Source of the DNA: an uncultured Clostridia bacterium
GTDB taxonomy: Bacteria > CAYTYR01 > UBA6262
DNA length: 64,000 bases
NCBI GenBank assembly: GCA_964441745.1
Contig: CAYTYR010000005.1
Span: 1 to 64,000 of the forward strand
Direction of reading: 5' to 3'
Shown: in pieces, positions 13,118-53,233 of the stretch
Position numbering within the stretch: position 1 is the first letter of the stretch
Layout of the letters: the number at the start of each line of letters is the position of its first letter
Position numbers and translations under genes: made by a program
The notes under the pieces: generated by a model
Seen by the model: the letters and a program-made list of their open reading frames with translations, nothing else
What the model was told of the DNA's origin: nothing
Database searches by the model: none

Positions 13118-14173
13118 GTGAAAGCGCTTATTCTGATTGGTGGCTTCGGTACCAGGCTTAGGCCTTTTACCTGCAATACGCCAAAACCTTTATTGCCTAT
13201 TGTCAATAAACCGTTCTTACTCTACCAGATCGAGTTATTGAAGAAATATGGAATTAAAGAAGTGATATTTTGCCTGTCTTATCTGTCGCATACTTTTGAA
13301 AATCACTTTGGTAATGGCTCTAAATATGGGATCAAAATACATTATGTCCATGAACATGATCCGCTCGGGACCGGTGGCGCGATCAAGAATGCGCAAAAAT
13401 ACATTGATCGCCGGGTATTGATCTTTAATGGCGATGTCTTGATGGATATTGATATTGAAGCTATGCGCCATTACCATGTCAAGAACAAGGCTAAAGCCAC
13501 AATCGCCTTGACCAGGGTGAAAGACCCTACTGTGTATGGCCTGGTAGAGACGGCCAAAAATGGCCGGATCGAAAGGTTTTTAGAAAAACCTAGTTGGGAT
13601 GAAGTTACCTGCAATACTATAAACGCCGGAGTATATATTTTTGAACCCGAAGTTTTATCATTAATACCGCCAGAAATCAATTATTCAGTGGAAAGGGGAT
13701 TATTTCCTAATTTGCTATCTAAGAATGAAAAGCTTTTTGGTTTTGTTAATACCAGTTATTGGATCGATATGGGCTCTATTGAAAAGTATTTGCAGGTACA
13801 TTTTGACATAATCGATGGCATAGCCGGAGCCAACATTGCTGGCCGTAAAACCGGCAAGAATATCTGGCAGGGAAACAATAGTTTTATCAGTAAAGAAGCG
13901 GTAATAGCTGGCAAACTGGTGATGGGTAATAAAGCCAGGATTGAAGAATTTGCCCAGATCAACGGCAAAGTCACTCTTGGCGACGGCGTGATAATCCGCA
14001 AAGGCGCGATATTAAGTGATTGTGTGGTCCATGATCATACGGAAGTAGGAGAAGGCTCCAGGCTGGAAAAATGCCTCGTCGGCAAACAGTGTATCATTGA
14101 ACCGCATACTTCTCTAAGCCCAGGGACAGCTTTAGCCGACCACTCGATCCTGAAAAAGTATAGTAAATTGTAG
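13118..14173 (+). CDS. NDP-sugar pyrophosphorylase (mannose-1-phosphate guanylyltransferase-like) with LbH tail
   Basis: GGFGTRLRP, PKPLLP, PLGTGGA, FLEKP, INAGVY; hexapeptide C-terminus. Confidence 0.88.
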   Translation: MKALILIGGFGTRLRPFTCNTPKPLLPIVNKPFLLYQIELLKKYGIKEVIFCLSYLSHTFENHFGNGSKYGIKIHYVHEHDPLGTGGAIKNAQKYIDRRVLIFNGDVLMDIDIEAMRHYHVKNKAKATIALTRVKDPTVYGLVETAKNGRIERFLEKPSWDEVTCNTINAGVYIFEPEVLSLIPPEINYSVERGLFPNLLSKNEKLFGFVNTSYWIDMGSIEKYLQVHFDIIDGIAGANIAGRKTGKNIWQGNNSFISKEAVIAGKLVMGNKARIEEFAQINGKVTLGDGVIIRKGAILSDCVVHDHTEVGEGSRLEKCLVGKQCIIEPHTSLSPGTALADHSILKKYSKL

Positions 14174-32062: not shown

Positions 32063-33109
<1,047 letters not shown>

Positions 33110-33115
33110 CTTTTT

Positions 33116-33170
33116 GATTACACACCTGCCTGCCGGCAGGCAGGGATTACGAAAAAAGATTACACAGATT
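33116..33170. repeat. GATTACACAGATT repeat pair interrupted by the palindrome CCTGCCTGCCGGCAGGCAGG (33125-33144)
   Basis: GATTACACA|insert|GATT; an identical palindrome lies at 35-54. Confidence 0.9.
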
Positions 33171-33221
33171 GGGGCATTAGCCTCAGTCTGTGTGGTCGCT
33201 TTTAAGTGGAGGGGAAAGAAA

Positions 33222-34412
33222 ATGGCGAAAATGAACATTACCGATGCAGATCTCAGCAATAAAAAGGTACTCATGAGGGTTGATTTTAATGTCCCGCTGG
33301 ATAAACAGCAGAACATTACCGATGATACCAGAATTAAAGAGACTTTACCCTCAATTAAATATCTCCTGGATAAAAAATGTTCCCTGGTTTTGTGTGCCCA
33401 TTTAGGCCGGCCAAAAGGCAAACCAGTCCCGGAAATGAGCTTGAAGCCCTGTGCCGAGCGCCTGGCTAAGCTGACCGGGGTAAAAGTACAGATGGCTCCT
33501 GATTGCATCGGTGCGGAAACCAAAAAAATGGCTGAGGCCCTTAAACCAGGAGGAATCCTATTACTGGAAAACCTGCGCTTCCATCCTGAAGAAGAAAAGA
33601 ATGACCCGAATTTTGCCAAGGAATTATCCTCCCTGGCTGAGGTATTTGTACAAGATGCCTTTGGCACAGTGCATCGTGCCCATGCTTCCACTGAAGGTGT
33701 GACCAAATATTTACCTGCTTATGCCGGGTTCTTATTAAAGAAAGAGATTGATTATCTGGGCAAAGCAGTAGAAAATCCGGATAAACCTTTTGTCGCCATC
33801 CTTGGCGGGGCCAAGATCAGCGGCAAAATTGATGTTATATCCAATTTATTAAATAAAGTAGATACCCTGATCGTTGGCGGCGCCATGACCTACACTTTCC
33901 TGAAAGCCCAGGGCTTAAGTATCGGTAATTCCCTGGTAGAAAATGACCGTCTGGATATGGCCAAGGAAGTACTCGCTAAAGCCAAAGACAAGAAAGTAAC
34001 TTTTTTATTGCCACTTGATCATTTAATAGCAGATAAAGTAGAAGCCGGAGCCAAATCGGAAATAGTAGGTGAAAATATCCCGGCAGGTATGATCGGCGTG
34101 GATATCGGACCCAAAACCATAGCTCTTTTTAAAGAGGCAATTAAGAGAGCCAAGACAATTGTCTGGAACGGGCCAATGGGTGTATTTGAAATTGATGATT
34201 TTGCCAAAGGAACAATTGCTATTGCCAATGCCTTAGCTGAAGCAACAAAAAACGGCGCCATCACTATAATCGGTGGCGGTGATTCAGTAGCGGCAGTAGC
34301 CAAAGCAGGCGTTACCAGCAAGATCTCACATATATCAACTGGCGGTGGAGCCAGCCTGGAATTCCTGGAAGGTAAAGTATTGCCGGGAATAGCAGCTTTG
34401 AAAGATAAGTAA
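33222..34412 (+). CDS. pgk: Phosphoglycerate kinase
   Basis: [44 protein letters not shown]; real start MAKMNI after GGAGG. Confidence 0.97.
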
Positions 34413-34416
34413 AAAC

Positions 34417-34496
34417 GATTACCCGCCAAAGAGCTCCGGCGGGCGCGGCACAGATTTAAAGAGATCCGCCAGAGGCGGACAGGGATTACACAGATT
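34417..34496. repeat. GATTACACAGATT repeats carrying two hairpin inserts
   Basis: 34422-34448 insert matches 42332-42358; 34465-34483 is the exact reverse complement of 16814-16832. Confidence 0.85.
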
Positions 34497-34513
34497 AAAG
34501 ATAGGAGTAAAAA

Positions 34514-34864
34514 ATGTTTGCATTCTTAGTATCAATACATATCTTAGTGTGCATCTGGCTGATCGTCATTGTGCTTTTACAGGCAGGAAAAGGCGGGGGG
34601 TTATCTGGTTTGTTTGGCGGTGGCAGCTCTCCCGAAACTCTTTTTGGCGGCGGCGGAGATACGACCATGAAGAAGATTACCACAGTATCTGCTTTTCTCT
34701 TCCTGATCACTTCAACGTTGCTCTATATCTATATTACTAAGCAGGATTCTACCAGTGTAGTAACACCAATAGCAGCTACTTCTGCCCCGGCAGTCCCAGC
34801 GGCAACTCCAGCAGCGCCAGCAGCAAGTACGCCGGCCCCAGCAACTGCTCCAGCTAGTAAATAG
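34514..34864 (+). CDS. secG: Preprotein translocase subunit SecG (Ala/Pro-rich tail)
   Basis: VLLQAGKGGGLSGLFGGG, two TM helices; followed by tRNA-Leu(GAG). Confidence 0.9.
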   Translation: MFAFLVSIHILVCIWLIVIVLLQAGKGGGLSGLFGGGSSPETLFGGGGDTTMKKITTVSAFLFLITSTLLYIYITKQDSTSVVTPIAATSAPAVPAATPAAPAASTPAPATAPASK

Positions 34865-34911
34865 AAATAAATATAATTGTCTTTGAAATAATTGATAGAA
34901 AAAACTGATTT

Positions 34912-34993
34912 GCGAGGATGGCGGAATTGGCAGACGCGTACGCTTGAGGTGCGTATGGGTAACACCGTGAGGGTTCAATTCCCTCTCCTCGCA
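34912..34993 (+). tRNA. tRNA-Leu (GAG)
   Basis: Acceptor GCGAGGA/TCCTCGC, anticodon arm TACGC-TTGAGGT-GCGTA, long variable arm, GGTTCAATTCC. Confidence 0.95.
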
Positions 34994-35115
34994 AGATTTA
35001 CCCCAAACCCCGCTCACAGGGGCTCCCCCGCCAACGATCTTTGGCGGGCTCACTCGGCTGATTTCCTGGCCGGAAATCAAAACGCCGGCTCGCTGTTACC
35101 CCTTGGGGTGAATCT
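34994..35115. mobile_element. MITE-like element with terminal inverted repeats, abutting the tRNA-Leu 3' end
   Basis: AGATTTACCCCAA ... TTGGGGTGAATCT (12/13 match), internal hairpins, no ORF. Confidence 0.5.
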
Positions 35116-35172
35116 GGAGAACAATAATTTTATTTTTTCTAGTCTATTTCGTCTTTTTAAGAAATAAAATGC

Positions 35173-35201
35173 TTGAAAAAGCAGTCCATTTATTGTATAA
35201 T
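35173..35201 (+). promoter_or_regulatory. Putative sigma70 promoter for tRNA-Gly
   Basis: TTGAAA-17 nt-TATAAT. Confidence 0.65.
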
Positions 35202-35227
35202 AATTAAATACGAGATAGCGCATTAAT

Positions 35228-35300
<73 letters not shown>

Positions 35301-35567
35301 TTTTTTTCTTAAAAAACGATTACACAGATTTTAAGAGAAGATTACACAGATTAGAACCCTTCATATAAAGGCAAGCAAAAAAGTGTTTTTTGCAATCATT
35401 TGCCTTGTTTGCTTGTAAAAACGTGTATAAGCATAGAGAAGCAAGGGGGTGACAGCGAGGTCGCAAAGAGAATGTGGTTGCGATCAACACGTTACCGACC
35501 GAGCGTCAAGAGGGGGAAAGGTTATTTCCCCCTATGAGGGAGTCCCGATCTTATCGGGACGACAATA

Positions 35568-35685
35568 GTGCGGTACCCAAGTGGCTAAGGGACCTGCCCG
35601 CCAGAGTCTGGTGGCGGGGCAGTCTGCAACCCGCCAACGTACTTTGGCGGGCAAATCCCTGCCTGACGGCAGGCAGGCGCCCCGC
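35568..35685 (+). pseudogene. Disrupted tRNA-Cys copy with three hairpin inserts
   Basis: Colinear with 35951-36023 except for hairpins at 35593-35618, 35630-35651 and 35658-35677; acceptor ends are truncated. Confidence 0.85.
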
Positions 35686-35702
35686 TTAATGAATGAAAAT
35701 AC

Positions 35703-35945
35703 ATGATATATTTTGTATATATATTAAAAAGCTTAAAAGATGGTAAAAGATATATTGGAATAACTTCAAACTTATTTATAAGAGTGATTGAACACAATAA
35801 GGGTGGAGTTGAGTCGACAAAGAATAGACATCCGCTTGAACTAATATACACAGAAAAGTTTGCAAGTAAAAAAGAAGCGCAAAGAAGAGAAAGATTTTTC
35901 AAGACTGGTGCGGGGCGGACATTCTTAAGTAGAATATCGAAATAG
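35703..35945 (+). CDS. Small stand-alone GIY-YIG nuclease
   Basis: FVYIL...YIGIT...R...HN...E..A..RE..FK.G.GR; 80 aa; AT-rich. Confidence 0.88.
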   Translation: MIYFVYILKSLKDGKRYIGITSNLFIRVIEHNKGGVESTKNRHPLELIYTEKFASKKEAQRRERFFKTGAGRTFLSRISK

Positions 35946-35950
35946 GTGAC

Positions 35951-36023
35951 GGTGCGGTACCCAAGTGGCTAAGGGAGCAGTCTGCAAAACTGTTATTCGG
36001 CGGTTCAAATCCGCCCCGCACCT
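35951..36023 (+). tRNA. tRNA-Cys (GCA)
   Basis: GGTGCGG/CCGCACC acceptor, GCAGT-CTGCAAA-ACTGT anticodon arm, GGTTCAAATCC, U discriminator. Confidence 0.94.
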
Positions 36024-36047
36024 TTTAAATAGGATACAAAAGGTGAG

Positions 36048-36138
36048 AGTGGTTAAGGGACCTGCCCGCTAGAGTCTGGTGGCGGGGCAGTCTGCAACCC
36101 GCCAACGTACTTTGGCGGGCAAAATCCGCCCCGCACCT
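36048..36138 (+). pseudogene. Second disrupted tRNA-Cys copy (5'-truncated, two hairpin inserts)
   Basis: AGTGGTTAAGGGA-[CCTGCCCGCTAGAGTCTGGTGGCGGG]-GCAGTCTGCAA-[CCCGCCAACGTACTTTGGCGGG]-CAAAATCCGCCCCGCACCT. Confidence 0.85.
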
Positions 36139-36175
36139 CCAAAAATCGGTTTAAAATCAATATATATACGACATC

Positions 36176-36379
36176 GGGCAGTTAGCTCAGTTTCAGCCAA
36201 AGGCTGATCCGCCTCTGACGGAGGTTAGAGTACTTCCTTGACCTGGGAGGGGCATCCCGATAGAAGAAAAATGGGCTTGTAGCTCAGCTGGTTAGAGTAC
36301 TTCCTTGACATGGAAGGGGTCTGCGGTTCGAATCCGCACAAGCCCACCATTTTCCTTTTCATCGGGATACTGCCCACCA
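36176..36379 (+). pseudogene. Disrupted outer tRNA-Val (GAC) enclosing an intact tRNA-Val
   Basis: 5' GGGCAGT pairs with ACTGCCC-ACCA at 36369-36379; 30-nt double hairpin in the D-loop; T-arm replaced by an IR-flanked cassette. Confidence 0.75.
36273..36349 (+). tRNA. tRNA-Val (GAC)
   Basis: GGGCTTG/CAAGCCC acceptor, CTTCC-TTGACAT-GGAAG anticodon arm, GGTTCGAATCC, encoded CCA. Confidence 0.95.
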
Positions 36380-36406
36380 TAAAAATGGTGGAGAAAAGAA
36401 ATATAT

Positions 36407-38137
36407 ATGGAAAAAAATGAAGAGAACCTGCAAGCATTAAGACATTCCGCATCACATGTAATGGCCCAGGCAGTTAAAGAACTGTACCCTGAGGTAAAAC
36501 TGGCCATTGGCCCAGCTATTGCTGATGGTTTCTACTATGATTTTGACAAGAAAGAACCCTTCACTCCGGAAGACCTCGAAAAAATCTCCCAAAAAATGAA
36601 AGAAATCGTCAAACAAAATCTCAAATTCGAGCATTATGAAAAATCCCGCGCCGAAGCTATCAAATATTTCCAGGATAAAGGCGAAAAATACAAAGTAGAA
36701 CTCATCAACGACCTGCCTGACGAGAATATGTCATTTTATAAACAGGGTGATTTTGTTGACCTGTGCAAAGGCCCGCATACCAACTATACCGGTGGCTTAA
36801 AACATTTCAAGTTGTTGAGCGTAGCAGCGGCCTATTGGCGCGGAAATGAAAAAAGAGAGAGCTTACAGCGCATATATGGTACCGTATTCTTTACCAAAGA
36901 AGAATTAGACGCCTACCTGAACCTGTTAGAGGAAGCCAAAGCGCGTGACCATCGTAAATTAGGCAAAGAGCTGGACCTGTTCAGTTTTCATGAAGAAGCT
37001 GGCCCGGGATTGGTTTTCTGGCATCCTAAAGGATCTTTGGTCCGCAAGGTCATAGAAGATTTCTGGAAAGATGAGCACCTGAAGAATGGTTACAATCTGC
37101 TCAATACGCCGCATATTGCTAACCTGAATATCTGGAAAACCAGCGGACATTGGAATTTCTACCGGGAGAGCATGTATTCCCCGATGGATATAGACGGCCA
37201 GGACTATATGATCAAGCCGATGAATTGCCCATTTCATATCCTGATCTATAAGACCCAATTGCGCAGTTACCGGGAGCTTCCTATCCGTTACGCGGAATTA
37301 GGGACAGTTTACCGCTATGAGCGCAGTGGCGCTTTGCACGGTTTGATGAGAGTGCGCGGGTTTACCCAGGATGATGCGCATATCTATTGCCGGTTGGACC
37401 AGTTGGAAAACGAGATCATTGATGTCATAAAATTTGTCCTGTTCATCTTGCAGACTTTCGGGTTTAAGGAATATGAAGTGTATGTCAGCACGAGACCGGA
37501 AAAGTATGCCGGTGAATTGGCGCATTGGGAAAAAGCCACTTCGGCGTTGGAAAATGCCCTTAAAGCTGTTGGTTTAACTTACCAGATAGATCCGGGTGAA
37601 GGAGTTTTTTACGGGCCGAAGATCGATATTAAGATCAAAGATTGCCTGAATCGTGCCTGGCAATGTTCCACTATCCAGGTGGATTTCAACTTACCTACCG
37701 CGTTTAAAGTAGAGTATATTAATGAAGAAAGCAAACCTGTGCAGCCAGTAATGATTCACCGCGCGCTGATGGGCTCCCTGGAACGTTTCTTTGGCGTATT
37801 GATCGAGCACTATAAAGGGGCTTTCCCGGTATGGCTCTGCCCGGTACAGGCCAAGGTACTCAATATTACTGACAGCCAGGAAGAATATGCTAAAAAAGTA
37901 TTTGCCCAGCTCAAGGAAAATGGTATCCGCGCTGAGCTGGATATTCGCAATGAAAAATTGGGTATGAAGATCAGGGAAGCGCAATTGGCTAAGATCCCTT
38001 ATATGCTGGTAGTAGGAGATAAAGAAAAAGAAAATGGTACGGTCACCCTGCGCCGGCGCAATAGCCAGGAACAAAAAGTCAGGCCTTTAGCTGATTTTAT
38101 CAGTTTGGCTCTAGAAGAGATCAAAAATAGGATATAA
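36407..38137 (+). CDS. thrS: Threonine--tRNA ligase (short form without N-terminal TGS domain)
   Basis: RHSASH, DLCKGPH, RDHRKLG, KPMNCP, RVRGFTQDD, FYGPK, MIHRA. Confidence 0.97.
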   Translation: MEKNEENLQALRHSASHVMAQAVKELYPEVKLAIGPAIADGFYYDFDKKEPFTPEDLEKISQKMKEIVKQNLKFEHYEKSRAEAIKYFQDKGEKYKVELINDLPDENMSFYKQGDFVDLCKGPHTNYTGGLKHFKLLSVAAAYWRGNEKRESLQRIYGTVFFTKEELDAYLNLLEEAKARDHRKLGKELDLFSFHEEAGPGLVFWHPKGSLVRKVIEDFWKDEHLKNGYNLLNTPHIANLNIWKTSGHWNFYRESMYSPMDIDGQDYMIKPMNCPFHILIYKTQLRSYRELPIRYAELGTVYRYERSGALHGLMRVRGFTQDDAHIYCRLDQLENEIIDVIKFVLFILQTFGFKEYEVYVSTRPEKYAGELAHWEKATSALENALKAVGLTYQIDPGEGVFYGPKIDIKIKDCLNRAWQCSTIQVDFNLPTAFKVEYINEESKPVQPVMIHRALMGSLERFFGVLIEHYKGAFPVWLCPVQAKVLNITDSQEEYAKKVFAQLKENGIRAELDIRNEKLGMKIREAQLAKIPYMLVVGDKEKENGTVTLRRRNSQEQKVRPLADFISLALEEIKNRI

Positions 38138-38205
38138 ATAAGGCACAAAGTTTTAATACAAAAACAGGCACAAAGGCACAAAGTAAAATAAATGGGAGGT
38201 CGGGA

Positions 38206-38871
38206 GTGAAAAAATATTTATTGGTACCAGTTTTTCTATTAATATTTCCGGCTTCTCTCCTGGCGCAAAACCTGACTGAATTGGTAGATACTCCTACGGC
38301 GGATATATATGAATCCGGCACATACAACTTGAATTTGCGGCTATATGGGGCAGGAAGCGTGCTGACCAGGCTGCTTTTCAGTGTGAAATTCTTTGAGCTG
38401 GGAGCTTATTTGGATGTAGATAACGCCACCGGTTCCTTGGACCCCAAAGCTCATGATGTTCAGCCGCTGTTGAAAATACGTCTATATCCCGGTGGACAGA
38501 TCCTACCGGCCTTGGCTATTGGTTATGACGGACAGGGTGAAAATTATTATTTCAAAGAACCAAAGGGATTCTATGTGGTTCTGTCTAAAGAACTGCTAAT
38601 CCCCGGCTTAATGCTGCACCTCGGCGGCAATAGCAAGGATTATACGTATGGCTTTGCCGGTGTCAGCTATACATTTGAAGAACAAGGCAGTGTTTTTGTC
38701 GAATACGAACGTATCCGGAATATGAGCGACCTGACCAATAACAAGTGCAATGCCGGATTGAAATTCCAGATCACCAAGGAACTAGGCATGGAATTTGATT
38801 TCAAGAATATTGGTAATCGCGGTACTGAGTATGAACGGATATTGCGTTTTGATTATTCCGGCGAGTTTTAG
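38206..38871 (+). CDS. Exported outer-membrane protein, YjbH-like
   Basis: Signal peptide, LVDTPTA motif, PALAIGYD, amphipathic strands, terminal Phe. Confidence 0.5.
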   Translation: MKKYLLVPVFLLIFPASLLAQNLTELVDTPTADIYESGTYNLNLRLYGAGSVLTRLLFSVKFFELGAYLDVDNATGSLDPKAHDVQPLLKIRLYPGGQILPALAIGYDGQGENYYFKEPKGFYVVLSKELLIPGLMLHLGGNSKDYTYGFAGVSYTFEEQGSVFVEYERIRNMSDLTNNKCNAGLKFQITKELGMEFDFKNIGNRGTEYERILRFDYSGEF

Positions 38872-38935
38872 GAAAAACGATTACGCGGATTAGAAAACCA
38901 GATTACACAGATTTCTTAAAGGTTTAGGAGTATGT

Positions 38936-39898
38936 ATGGCCTTAGAGAGTGTCTTGGATTTTGAACGGCCTATCTCGGAGCTTGAACAGCAAATAGAAGA
39001 AGTAAAAAGCCTGGTAGCTGCTGGTGATATGAGCTTGTCTGTAAAACTGGGCAAGATGGAAGCCAAACTGGATGTTTTAAAGAGAAAAGTGTACGGGAAC
39101 CTTACCCCTTGGCAGAAAGTACAATTAGCCAGGCACCCGCAGCGTCCATATACACAGGATTATATAAAATTATTAGTGACTGATTTTCAGGAATTGCACG
39201 GTGATCGTAAATTTGCCGATGATTTGGCGCTCTTGAGTGGCTTGGCCTCTTTTGAAGGGATGCCGGTATTGGTGATGGGCCAGCAAAAAGGCAGAAATGT
39301 TAAAGAAAATATGGAGCATAATTTTGGCATGATGCAGCCTGAAGGATATCGTAAAGCGTTACGTCTAATGCAGCTGGCCGAAAAATTTAATATTCCCGTT
39401 ATCACTTTTGTCGATACACCTGGCGCCTATCCAGGCATAGGAGCCGAGGAACGGGGCCAGGCAGAAGCTATCGCGCATAATTTATACAGTATGAGTGACT
39501 TGAAGACGCCGATCATAGTAATTGTCATCGGAGAGGGCGGCAGTGGCGGGGCCCTGGGTATTGGTGTTGGCGATAAAGTATATATGCTGGAGAACAGCAT
39601 TTACTCCGTGATCTCGCCTGAAGGCTGCGCTTCCATACTCTGGCGGGATGCCAGCAAAGCGGCGCTGGCAGCCGAAACCATGAAAATAACAGCGAAAGAT
39701 TGTTTAAACCTAGGGGTTATCGATGAGATTATACCGGAACCGTTGGGTGGCGCTCATCACAGCTATGAAGAAGCAGCAGAGAATATCCGTAAGGTCCTGC
39801 GCCGCGATCTTAAAGAACTGGTGAAAATAGTCCCAGATGAATTAATCAAAATACGGTACGAAAAAATACGCAAATGGGGCGCATATAAAGAAAGCTAA
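38936..39898 (+). CDS. accA: Acetyl-CoA carboxylase carboxyltransferase alpha
   Basis: LDFERPI, ARHPQRP, PEGYRKA, DTPGAYPG, GEGGSGGA, SVISPEG. Confidence 0.97.
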   Translation: MALESVLDFERPISELEQQIEEVKSLVAAGDMSLSVKLGKMEAKLDVLKRKVYGNLTPWQKVQLARHPQRPYTQDYIKLLVTDFQELHGDRKFADDLALLSGLASFEGMPVLVMGQQKGRNVKENMEHNFGMMQPEGYRKALRLMQLAEKFNIPVITFVDTPGAYPGIGAEERGQAEAIAHNLYSMSDLKTPIIVIVIGEGGSGGALGIGVGDKVYMLENSIYSVISPEGCASILWRDASKAALAAETMKITAKDCLNLGVIDEIIPEPLGGAHHSYEEAAENIRKVLRRDLKELVKIVPDELIKIRYEKIRKWGAYKES

Positions 39899-53110: not shown

Positions 53111-53233
53111 TTTATATGAAAATAAAGGGCTTGAAGCTGACCCGAACGCCACTGGTCCGAGTGAGGGCAGCCGGCTTCGGAGGAAGCCGCTGAAATAGCG
53201 GCTGGGGGAGAAGAAGTCCCACCTCCGGCATTT
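53094..53233 (+). repeat. 20-bp direct repeat of the tRNA-Leu 3' end around a 100-bp structured spacer
   Basis: AAGTCCCACCTCCGGCATTT at 53094-53113 and 53214-53233. Confidence 0.9.

Follow-up and report, generated by a model that had tools for sequence, protein, structure and literature searches.

A putative tRNA-resident nuclease cassette: a single-domain GIY-YIG gene among hairpin-interrupted copies of tRNA-Cys in an uncultured Clostridia bacterium

Two described groups of GIY-YIG nucleases stand close to the system considered here. In phage T4, segB is a gene of the tRNA cluster; the published accounts, in the excerpts on which we draw, describe an enzyme whose site contains the conserved T-loop motif and which spreads itself together with tRNA genes (PMC2330249), drives tandem amplification of a tRNA segment and is encoded near tRNAs in many phages (PMC13096335). 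The Ssn proteins (Chenal et al. 2025, PMC11893778; likewise drawn from part of that source) are single-domain GIY-YIG proteins of about 94 amino acids (aa; Conserved Domain Database (CDD) entry cd10448) that cleave single-stranded DNA (ssDNA) beside the NTS hairpin repeat, which flanks their genes and is dispersed in the genome; one of them, SsnA of Neisseria meningitidis, modulates transformation. Here we analyse the first 64,000 bases of contig CAYTYR010000005.1 (C5; positions 1-64000, hereafter the window) from the genome of an uncultured Clostridia bacterium (G000; 2.07 Mb, 39 contigs, 42 tRNA genes), where an 80-aa GIY-YIG open reading frame (ORF) and an intact tRNA-Cys gene stand between two copies of that tRNA gene interrupted by hairpins. 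We favour, at a probability of roughly 60%, the reading that this is a mobile or once-mobile nuclease cassette resident in tRNA genes—a bacterial, single-domain, minimal counterpart of phage SegB. The subfamily to which the ORF belongs seemingly comprises widespread single-domain GIY-YIG nucleases living in tandemly duplicated tRNA genes, and would be undescribed: a full-text literature search returned no description of small bacterial GIY-YIG genes within duplicated tRNA genes or beside hairpin-interrupted tRNA copies.

The locus lies in a same-strand run of tRNA genes (Leu, Gly, Cys, Val) placed between gap/pgk and thrS, and consists of the following parts:

35543-35559, no strand assigned: perfect hairpin TCCCGATCTTATCGGGA, of the TCCCGA...TCGGGA type, 8 nt ahead of the upstream copy
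35568-35685, plus strand: upstream interrupted tRNA-Cys copy, retaining tRNA positions 2-26, 27-37 and 62-69 at 100% identity
35593-35618, plus strand: hairpin 1, 26 nt, inserted exactly where tRNA positions 26 and 27 meet (junction of D-arm and anticodon arm)
35630-35651, plus strand: hairpin 2, 22 nt (CCCGCC, 10 nt, GGCGGG), a member of a genome-wide family
35658-35677, plus strand: hairpin 3, perfect, 20 nt, CCTGCCTGACGGCAGGCAGG, in the T-arm; belongs to a 20-copy family
35703-35945, plus strand: 80-aa single-domain GIY-YIG nuclease ORF (Pfam PF01541, E 2.2e-13)
35951-36023, plus strand: intact tRNA-Cys(GCA) (ARAGORN; Rfam tRNA, 63.6 bits)
36036/36048-36138, plus strand: downstream interrupted tRNA-Cys copy, with tRNA positions 14-26, 27-37 and 57-73 and hairpins 1 and 2

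The sequence-only reading of this stretch had proposed exactly this four-part order, and ARAGORN, Rfam and Pfam place each part where it had been read; hairpin mapping agrees, too, that both damaged copies carry the same two hairpins and that the upstream copy has a third in its T-arm. The intact gene, 5 nt past the ORF stop, is the sole tRNA-Cys among the genome's 42 tRNAs. It does the tRNA's work, while the other copy is crippled by short GC-rich hairpins lying in loops or replacing arms: in the upstream copy, hairpins 2 and 3 stand where tRNA positions 38-61 would be. ARAGORN misses the interrupted copies, none of which reaches the Rfam tRNA model at E <= 1. Folded as ssDNA, the upstream copy attains -39.6 kcal/mol (z -4.56) and the downstream copy a z of -2.97, with 0 of 200 shuffles as stable in either case. 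The two are 97% identical over 76 nt, and so derive, as had been supposed, from one already-interrupted copy. An integrase or transposase, reported missing in the earlier reading, is indeed absent from the neighbourhood, the ORFs of 33000-39000 being gap, pgk, a small membrane-protein ORF, the nuclease and thrS; eight matches to the Y1_Tnp profile lie elsewhere in the genome.

The triplication is not an assembly artefact. The order of interrupted copy, ORF and tRNA-Cys is repeated in three separately assembled congeners (G003, G004 and G005), with ORFs 74-76% identical and tRNA-Cys beginning 3-6 nt past the stop, and contigs from public runs, which may include the source sample, bridge 35626-35999, 35970-36123, 36094-36318 and 35947-36259 without a difference. 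The contigs of four runs leave 35573-35611 uncovered, so that the left junction of hairpin 1 is unbridged there. Comparison of the locus in relatives, which the sequence-only reading had recommended, revealed empty sites: both G002, of the same genus, and G006, of a sister genus, have one intact tRNA-Cys between the same flanks, no ORF and no extra copy. Because the flanks in G004, left of the interrupted copy and right of the intact tRNA, are those of the single tRNA-Cys in G002, the gain amounts to ~340 nt, made up of the length of one tRNA, 16 nt of spacer, the ORF and a further 5 nt. At a second site, tRNA-Asn, the nuclease gene precedes the tRNA in G001 and G003 and is missing from G000. 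The cassette at tRNA-Cys thus appears to have entered a single branch of the genus and to have been retained there.

Within that branch the hairpins have a history of their own. The orthologous upstream copy contains hairpin 2 in G005, hairpins 2 and 3 in G004, hairpin 1 in G003 and all three in G000; hairpin 3 of G000 is common to G004 only, hairpin 1 is found in G000 and G003 and is missing from G004 and G005, and the loops of hairpin 2 differ between G000, G004 and G005. Such differing sets among four species suggest that hairpins were gained or lost stepwise. The tRNA-derived segments around them are 100% identical across the same four species while synonymous divergence (dS) in the ORF reaches 1.3, a constancy that requires the intact copy to have converted them or selection to have acted on them.

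The 80-aa protein matches PF01541 at 50.8 bits (cut-off 22.6) over residues 3-68. An 18-row alignment of tRNA-linked sequences holds Y6, Y17, G19, R27, H31, E63 and K67 invariant, among which we take Y6, Y17, R27, H31 and E63 to be the GIY-YIG catalytic residues (two tyrosines, an arginine, a histidine or tyrosine, and a glutamate). An AlphaFold2 model (pLDDT 94.5) has the beta-beta-alpha-beta-alpha fold; Foldseek places UPF0213 (1zg2) first, followed by Slx1 at a TMq of about 0.7, with I-TevI far weaker, the nearest solved proteins being UPF0213 BH0048 and EF2693 and then Slx1. UPF0213 is also the best sequence match in the PDB (E 1e-16), and the genome has a UPF0213-like copy of its own that falls, with its orthologues, in another clade. 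Other searches with the protein gave no NCBIfam family above cut-off, only weak homing-endonuclease matches in PHROGs, three weak matches by tblastn against plasmids and 14 weak matches among phages. Sequence and model together predict a minimal Slx1/UPF0213-like GIY-YIG nuclease. Among the four Cys-linked orthologues the ratio of nonsynonymous to synonymous divergence (dN/dS) is 0.08-0.16 at dS 0.32-1.33, indicating that the protein is kept by purifying selection.

How general this layout is was judged from homologues in relatives' genomes, reference genomes and metagenomes; the scans of the latter two set out from the single protein and reach only relatives sharing short exact peptides. De-duplication of the pooled set left 91 unique ORFs, 51 of them directly adjoined by a tRNA on the same strand. 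A partial copy of the same tRNA (15 nt or more) lies nearby at 41 of these 51, and at 28 of the 51 that partial copy contains a hairpin-like insert (12 nt or more, dG -8 or lower), so that homologues are strongly associated with tRNA genes, with partial copies of those tRNAs and with hairpins, much as the sequence-only reading had anticipated. By source, a same-strand tRNA accompanies 17 of 20 matches in relatives' genomes (E <= 1e-11), 13 of 25 reference-genome loci and 28 of 37 near-full-length metagenome loci, with no neighbouring tRNA on the opposite strand at any reference-genome or metagenome locus. Among the 20 matches in relatives, the tRNA starts -44 to +11 nt from the stop in 13, lies directly upstream in four and is lacking in three, and in several of the 13 the stop codon is located within the tRNA; excluding stretches that read through into the tRNA, homologues measure 78-104 aa. 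The reference-genome loci come from groups of the candidate phyla radiation (CPR), Elusimicrobia, a record labelled Gammaproteobacteria, Ignavibacteria, Verrucomicrobia, Nitrospirae, Desulfobacteria-like groups, Planctomycetes and Bacteroidota.

The adjoining tRNAs span at least 30 anticodons and 19 amino acids, and the arrangement takes two forms: a 5' fragment, the ORF and the intact tRNA, or the intact tRNA, the ORF and a 3' fragment. The window's triple layout is seen again at tRNA-Asp in G010 (locus L030), with a near-triple, its downstream fragment shorter, at tRNA-Pro of the same genome (L014). Hairpin sequences vary by lineage (TCCCGA-N4-TCGGGA, CCCGCC...GGCGGG, TCCGCC...GGCGGA, CCCCGA...TCGGGG and others), and the TCCCGA...TCGGGA type found ahead of the upstream tRNA-Cys copy recurs in interrupted tRNA copies of other phyla (L014, L030, L040, L058, L073, L107). 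The left borders of the inserts cluster at tRNA positions 24-28, 36-39 and 53-57 and the right borders at 44-48 and 55-57; the anticodon arm, positions 27-43, is exactly swapped for a hairpin in L033, L034 and L036, as are positions 27-41 in L093 and 28-44 in L107. Proteins sharing 65-81% identity adjoin tRNAs of different kinds: Met and Gln within a single genome, and Pro, Val, Leu and Glu within a single clade. The DNA of the Met/Gln pair is alike (80% over 259 nt) only across the ORF, with differing flanks, which suggests that the ORF is the sole conserved unit and that the tRNA parts are supplied by the target. Nuclease gene and tRNA-like unit are tandemly repeated in L073 and G091; in L013 the 3' end of an older nuclease gene persists before a tRNA-Gln fragment, and L015 holds a broken nuclease copy with an internal TAG. 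Taken with the empty sites, the tRNA-linked homologues support a tRNA-associated nuclease module that goes with tRNA duplication.

A side observation from L030 concerns annotation: the "second tRNA-Asp" called by ARAGORN at 1956-2034 of that locus is actually a hairpin-interrupted copy in which positions 40-51, running from the 3' strand of the anticodon stem up to where the T-stem begins, are swapped for TCCCGATGGTTCGGGA.

Set beside SegB of phages T4 and T6, these loci are alike in having a GIY-YIG gene among tRNA genes of many isotypes, in the duplication of tRNAs, the units in tandem and the concentration of inserts at the T-loop that mark the tRNA-linked loci, and in the presence or absence of the gene between close relatives at a conserved site (tRNA-Cys, empty in G002 and G006; tRNA-Asn, G001 versus G000). 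SegB is a larger protein with a DNA-binding part, whereas the window gene is chromosomal and encodes the catalytic domain only, its affinities within the superfamily being with Slx1, UPF0213 and Ssn; the reading frame stops after residue 80 and has no separate DNA-binding domain of the SegB type. The hairpin-interrupted tRNA copies are a further difference, finding no mention for SegB in the excerpts of PMC2330249 and PMC13096335. UPF0213/YhbQ and the stand-alone Slx1-like proteins (PDB 1zg2, 1ywl) provide the best sequence and fold matches, the window protein being a minimal variant of their domain; the genome's own UPF0213-like paralogue, by contrast, lies on another contig with no tRNA beside it, and its orthologues group apart. 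In the part of Dunin-Horkawicz et al. 2006 (PMC1564403) on which we rely, the only tRNA-related note is of an Slx1-like domain fused to a TrmH-like tRNA methyltransferase, and a linkage of Slx1-like proteins to tRNA genes goes unreported.

Two systems outside the superfamily also offer partial likenesses. Repetitive extragenic palindromes (REP) and their mosaic elements (BIME), with the REP-associated Y1 tyrosine transposases (RAYT), and the IS200/IS605 insertion sequences have short dispersed GC-rich hairpins flanking a small nuclease gene, and the strict same-strand arrangement seen here would suit a single-strand mechanism; the enzyme, however, is of another class, with no tyrosine transposase, and the target is a tRNA gene with a long duplication. 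Integrase-borne tRNA islands share the insert in a tRNA gene, the displaced partial copy and the restored intact gene, and differ in that the present locus has no integrase, an insert of ~340 nt, 5' as well as 3' fragments, and hairpins in the displaced copy.

The Ssn family is nearer. Like the window protein, its members have a single GIY-YIG domain of about 80-100 aa and no DNA-binding domain, and short GC-rich hairpins both flank the gene and occur dispersed in the genome; on the other side, the window gene sits within duplicated tRNA genes, and its product is, by eye, without the EGFTxKY motif and the C-terminal LIExxNPxWxDL motif. The word 'tRNA' appears 0 times in the main text of PMC11893778, and in its non-PDF supplements only within gene names. 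The NTS repeat, as described for Neisseria, is present (<=2 mismatches) in 135 of 401 small genomes (0.6-1.6 Mb; G042-G441, the class of the genome bearing L052), its reversed control in none, and five NTS-rich genomes among them have 5-12 small GIY-YIG genes each, of two coexisting kinds: some adjoin a tRNA and have no NTS, others are flanked by NTS and have no tRNA directly beside them. Taking the NTS-flanked genes of these five genomes as stand-ins for SsnA/cd10448, and clade placement as a proxy for cd10448 membership, we find the window protein 38-42% identical to the NTS-flanked representatives (E 1e-10 to 3e-13). In a maximum-likelihood tree of 115 rows, an 18-row clade (SH-aLRT 100) unites all three NTS-flanked genes with no tRNA-adjacent row, and a wider, 34-row clade (SH-aLRT 98) that includes the genus's UPF0213-like orthologues has two; of the remaining 81 rows 57 are tRNA-adjacent, and the window protein falls here, outside both clades. 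As far as this weakly resolved tree shows, the tRNA-linked genes are related to Ssn/UPF0213 and lie outside the NTS-type clade.

Besides the parts already listed, the tRNA run has three further features:

35173-35201, plus strand: promoter-like site ahead of tRNA-Gly (TTGAAA, 17 nt, TATAAT), a consensus match only, 11/12
36176-36265, plus strand: a further interrupted copy, comprising the 5' part of tRNA-Val, its D-loop bearing a double hairpin at 36192-36224
36273-36349, plus strand: intact tRNA-Val(GAC) (ARAGORN; Rfam)

The promoter-like site is a possible start for a single transcript of tRNA-Gly, the interrupted copy, the ORF, tRNA-Cys and tRNA-Val; there is no terminator-like site in 34800-36500, and no promoter of the ORF's own was found. 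Under the cassette reading, the nuclease gene would be transcribed with the tRNAs from this site and freed from the precursor through RNase P and RNase Z cuts. Its product would act on hairpin or cloverleaf DNA, single-stranded or extruded, as its Ssn relatives do on their hairpin repeat, and would cut tRNA genes at loops and arm junctions, repair of the cuts leading to tRNA duplication, copying of the cassette into naive tRNA alleles and entry of portable hairpins. By disrupting homology between the tRNA copies, the hairpins would keep the cassette from being lost by recombination, while the perfectly kept tRNA segments could persist as homology arms.

The connection between nuclease and hairpins in this scheme is circumstantial: the two occur together, and an activity on hairpins has been published for the Ssn relatives. 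The genome's CCGCC-N6-14-GGCGG family numbers 108 copies against 32 for an arms-reversed control, with 20 of the 108 within 150 nt of a tRNA against 2 of the 32, an enrichment that concerns tRNA genes generally, and a second family, CCTGCC...GGCAGG, has 20 copies. A 33-nt double hairpin (TTCAGCCnnnGGCTGA followed by TCCGCCnnnnGGCGGAGG) occupies the same D-loop site in four 5' tRNA fragments, each 33-71 nt upstream of the intact gene with no nuclease gene between:

window 36176-36265: fragment of tRNA-Val(GAC)
C1:256496-256563: fragment of tRNA-Arg(ACG)
C2:61575-61626: fragment of tRNA-Thr(CGT)
C10:26260-26320: fragment of tRNA-Arg(CCG)

One double hairpin at one D-loop site in four tRNAs speaks for targeted insertion and shows that a nuclease gene between is not required.

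Several observations weigh against the cassette reading or its hairpin component. As many as 88 of the 108 CCGCC hairpins are separated from the nearest tRNA by more than 150 nt; about ten other tRNAs have their own fragments nearby, hairpin-bearing or plain, without a nuclease gene, which may be footprints of lost cassettes, products of action in trans or the work of another agent; and in G002, where tRNA-linked copies are absent, CCGCC hairpins still number 51, the control giving 32. Among the homologous ORFs 40 of 91 have no adjoining tRNA, many of them in the Ssn/UPF0213-like clade, and outside that clade 24 of the 81 tree rows are also without one, some at contig ends; the tree itself was quickly built and leaves many forks unresolved. 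The degenerate SRM motif published for the Ssn repeats is not enriched: the genome has 10 matches, 20 shuffles average 8.35, and the locus itself has none. The intact tRNA beside the ORF would stay a target, and no immunity mechanism is evident. Purifying selection over a dS of about 1, finally, would be unusual for a fixed homing gene and fits a host function equally.

The interpretation given in the sequence-only reading is accordingly upheld in part. It had suggested a minimal selfish module aimed at tRNA genes: a minimal tRNA-associated nuclease module accompanying tRNA duplication stands, whereas a purely selfish nature is put in doubt by the purifying selection and a cutting of the tRNA gene by the nuclease is conjectural. 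It had also suggested that the nuclease may nick or mobilise the hairpins, a putative role for which the co-occurrence and the Ssn activity speak, and against which stand the hairpins distant from tRNAs, the nuclease-less fragments, the hairpins of G002 and the eight Y1 matches.

The main rival explanation starts from these last points: it keeps the cassette tRNA-associated and ascribes the hairpins to another agent, as REP-like palindromes, moved by a Y1 enzyme of the IS200/RAYT kind or arising by replication slippage, that pile up in the dispensable copy, cassettes with broken repeats surviving longer. We consider this possible, if on balance unlikely. Apart from the dispersal of both hairpin families (108 and 20 copies), mostly distant from tRNAs, the interrupted fragments without a nuclease gene and the G002 hairpins, it can call on a pair of sites, one filled by a hairpin and one empty: the genome has 100 occurrences of GATTACACAGATT, and the unit at 34411-34464 is split by a 27-nt CCGCC hairpin segment that is missing at 35312-35338. 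A candidate agent exists as well, in the eight genome matches to the Y1 transposase profile (PF01797), all outside the window region, with open frames of up to 334 aa against the 121 positions of the profile; they include:

C22:25848-26174: Y1 transposase match
C1:182900-183232: Y1 transposase match
C1:186764-187096: Y1 transposase match
C8:5426-5758: Y1 transposase match

No convincing hairpin of these families flanks any of the eight Y1 loci within 500 nt, however, and interrupted copies accompany the nuclease in many phyla with differing hairpin sequences (28 of 51). The insert sites, moreover, cluster at loops and arm junctions instead of falling at random, the same double hairpin takes the same D-loop place in four different tRNA fragments, and for a sister family, Ssn, binding and cutting of such hairpins have been demonstrated. 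Within the genus, G002 and G005, which have the fewest tRNA-linked copies, also show the smallest excess of hairpins relative to control, a trend across just six related genomes.

From the cassette reading the opposite step is to give the nuclease more to do. In a bolder version, which we hold to be rather doubtful, a structure-specific nuclease and its portable hairpins would form a new class of minimal mobile element that recognises the cloverleaf into which a tRNA gene folds when single-stranded or extruded, cutting it at loops and arm junctions; staggered cuts would duplicate the tRNA gene around the nuclease gene, and the same enzyme would cut and paste hairpins in place of tRNA arms and seed REP-like families.

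A domesticated host nuclease is a real possibility because of the strong purifying selection, and one we nonetheless think quite unlikely. It would control ssDNA uptake or recombination, as SsnA does, or resolve structures at highly transcribed tRNA loci, being co-transcribed with the tRNAs, and the fragments would be by-products of tRNA-locus instability. Besides the dN/dS of 0.08-0.16 held across four species at dS of up to 1.3, the gene's tight fit within a tRNA operon and the lack of any promoter found for it alone agree with this account, as does the effect of SsnA on transformation in the portion of PMC11893778 used here. Against it stand the patchy presence in one genus with clean empty sites, the many different tRNAs adjoined by close relatives, the multiple and tandem copies per genome, the broken L015 copy with its internal TAG, and the partial copy of the same tRNA at 41 of 51 loci, unexpected for an ordinary operon gene.

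Selection might instead act on the RNA. If the interrupted copies were working tRNA-like RNAs whose hairpins preserved a cloverleaf-like shape, recognition by RNase P and RNase Z would punctuate the nuclease mRNA at both ends and loss of the anticodon arm would stop decoding; in keeping with this, hairpins often replace exactly one arm by a like-sized stem-loop (L033, L034, L036; nearly so in L093 and L107), the tRNA-derived segments are invariant in four species while synonymous sites of the ORF diverge, and the ORF starts and stops within a few nucleotides of tRNA-like units. Many copies, though, are without the acceptor strand or have T-loop inserts, altering features that RNase P and RNase Z need, no interrupted copy resembled a tRNA closely enough for Rfam, and the stems are invariant and hence offer no compensatory changes to examine, so that we regard this explanation as highly unlikely. 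That the repeats were left at tRNA-Cys as the attachment sites of an integrase-borne island, or are a product of misassembly, is scarcely credible, for although attachment-type short duplicates of tRNA 3' ends occur elsewhere in the genome (Glu, Leu-caa, Gly-ccc) and 35573-35611 is uncovered by the public contigs examined, there is no integrase, the whole insert is ~340 nt when set against the empty site, the upstream copy includes the 5' part of the tRNA and not the 3' end alone, and three other assemblies repeat the order while contigs bridge the other junctions.

Other features of the locus and the genome were recorded in passing. Within the ORF, the codons for T-G-A-G-R (35907-35919, plus strand) contain 13 nt perfectly complementary to the tRNA-Cys 3' end (positions 60-72), with partners at 36010-36022 in the intact gene and 36125-36137 in the downstream copy; in the closest non-Cys relative, the tRNA-Gln locus L013, the equivalent codons, T-G-Q-G-R, have a 9-nt complement to the same part of tRNA-Gln, against a longest match of 8 nt in 466 mismatched pairs. 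As a general rule such complementarity of ORF and tRNA 3' ends fails, being confined to the Cys lineage and this one Gln locus. Upstream, the longest pgk ORF opens at a TTG and reads through a CCTGCCTGCCGGCAGGCAGG hairpin at 33125-33144 (region 33114-33230); the true start is probably the later ATG of MAKMNITD, which would make that hairpin intergenic between gap and pgk. Some tRNA genes are followed by a stretch of ~100 nt with a GCCAYTGGTCCGAG-like core and then a repeat of the last 17-18 nt of the tRNA, an attachment-site-like duplicate:

window 53112-53231: after tRNA-Leu(CAA)
C9:48569-48687: after tRNA-Gly(CCC)
G002:C36, about 13600-13720: after tRNA-Gly(GCC), as found in congeners

Rfam gave nothing above chance for the element after tRNA-Leu(CAA), and blastn found no second copy of the similar element on C9.

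For annotation, the interrupted copies are a pitfall in both directions, since they escape ARAGORN and Rfam and one, in L030, has been miscalled as a second tRNA-Asp. If the cassette reading is true, a large part of the unnamed 'GIY-YIG nuclease family protein' genes in uncultured bacteria would be one kind of element whose habitat is the tRNA gene, and the CPR-like lineages, which have 5-12 copies in a 1-Mb genome, would be included. The origin of many tRNA pseudo-copies in bacteria, of tandem duplicates and of hairpin-bearing 'odd tRNAs' would then be explained, and, were the bolder version to hold as well, hairpin movement and tRNA duplication would proceed in many bacterial phyla free of any transposase. 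Such enzymes could extend the toolbox of structure- or site-specific ssDNA cutters that Ssn has opened. The Ssn hairpin nucleases and the story of phage SegB would be linked, and it would become testable how an enzyme without a DNA-binding domain finds a target common to all tRNA genes.

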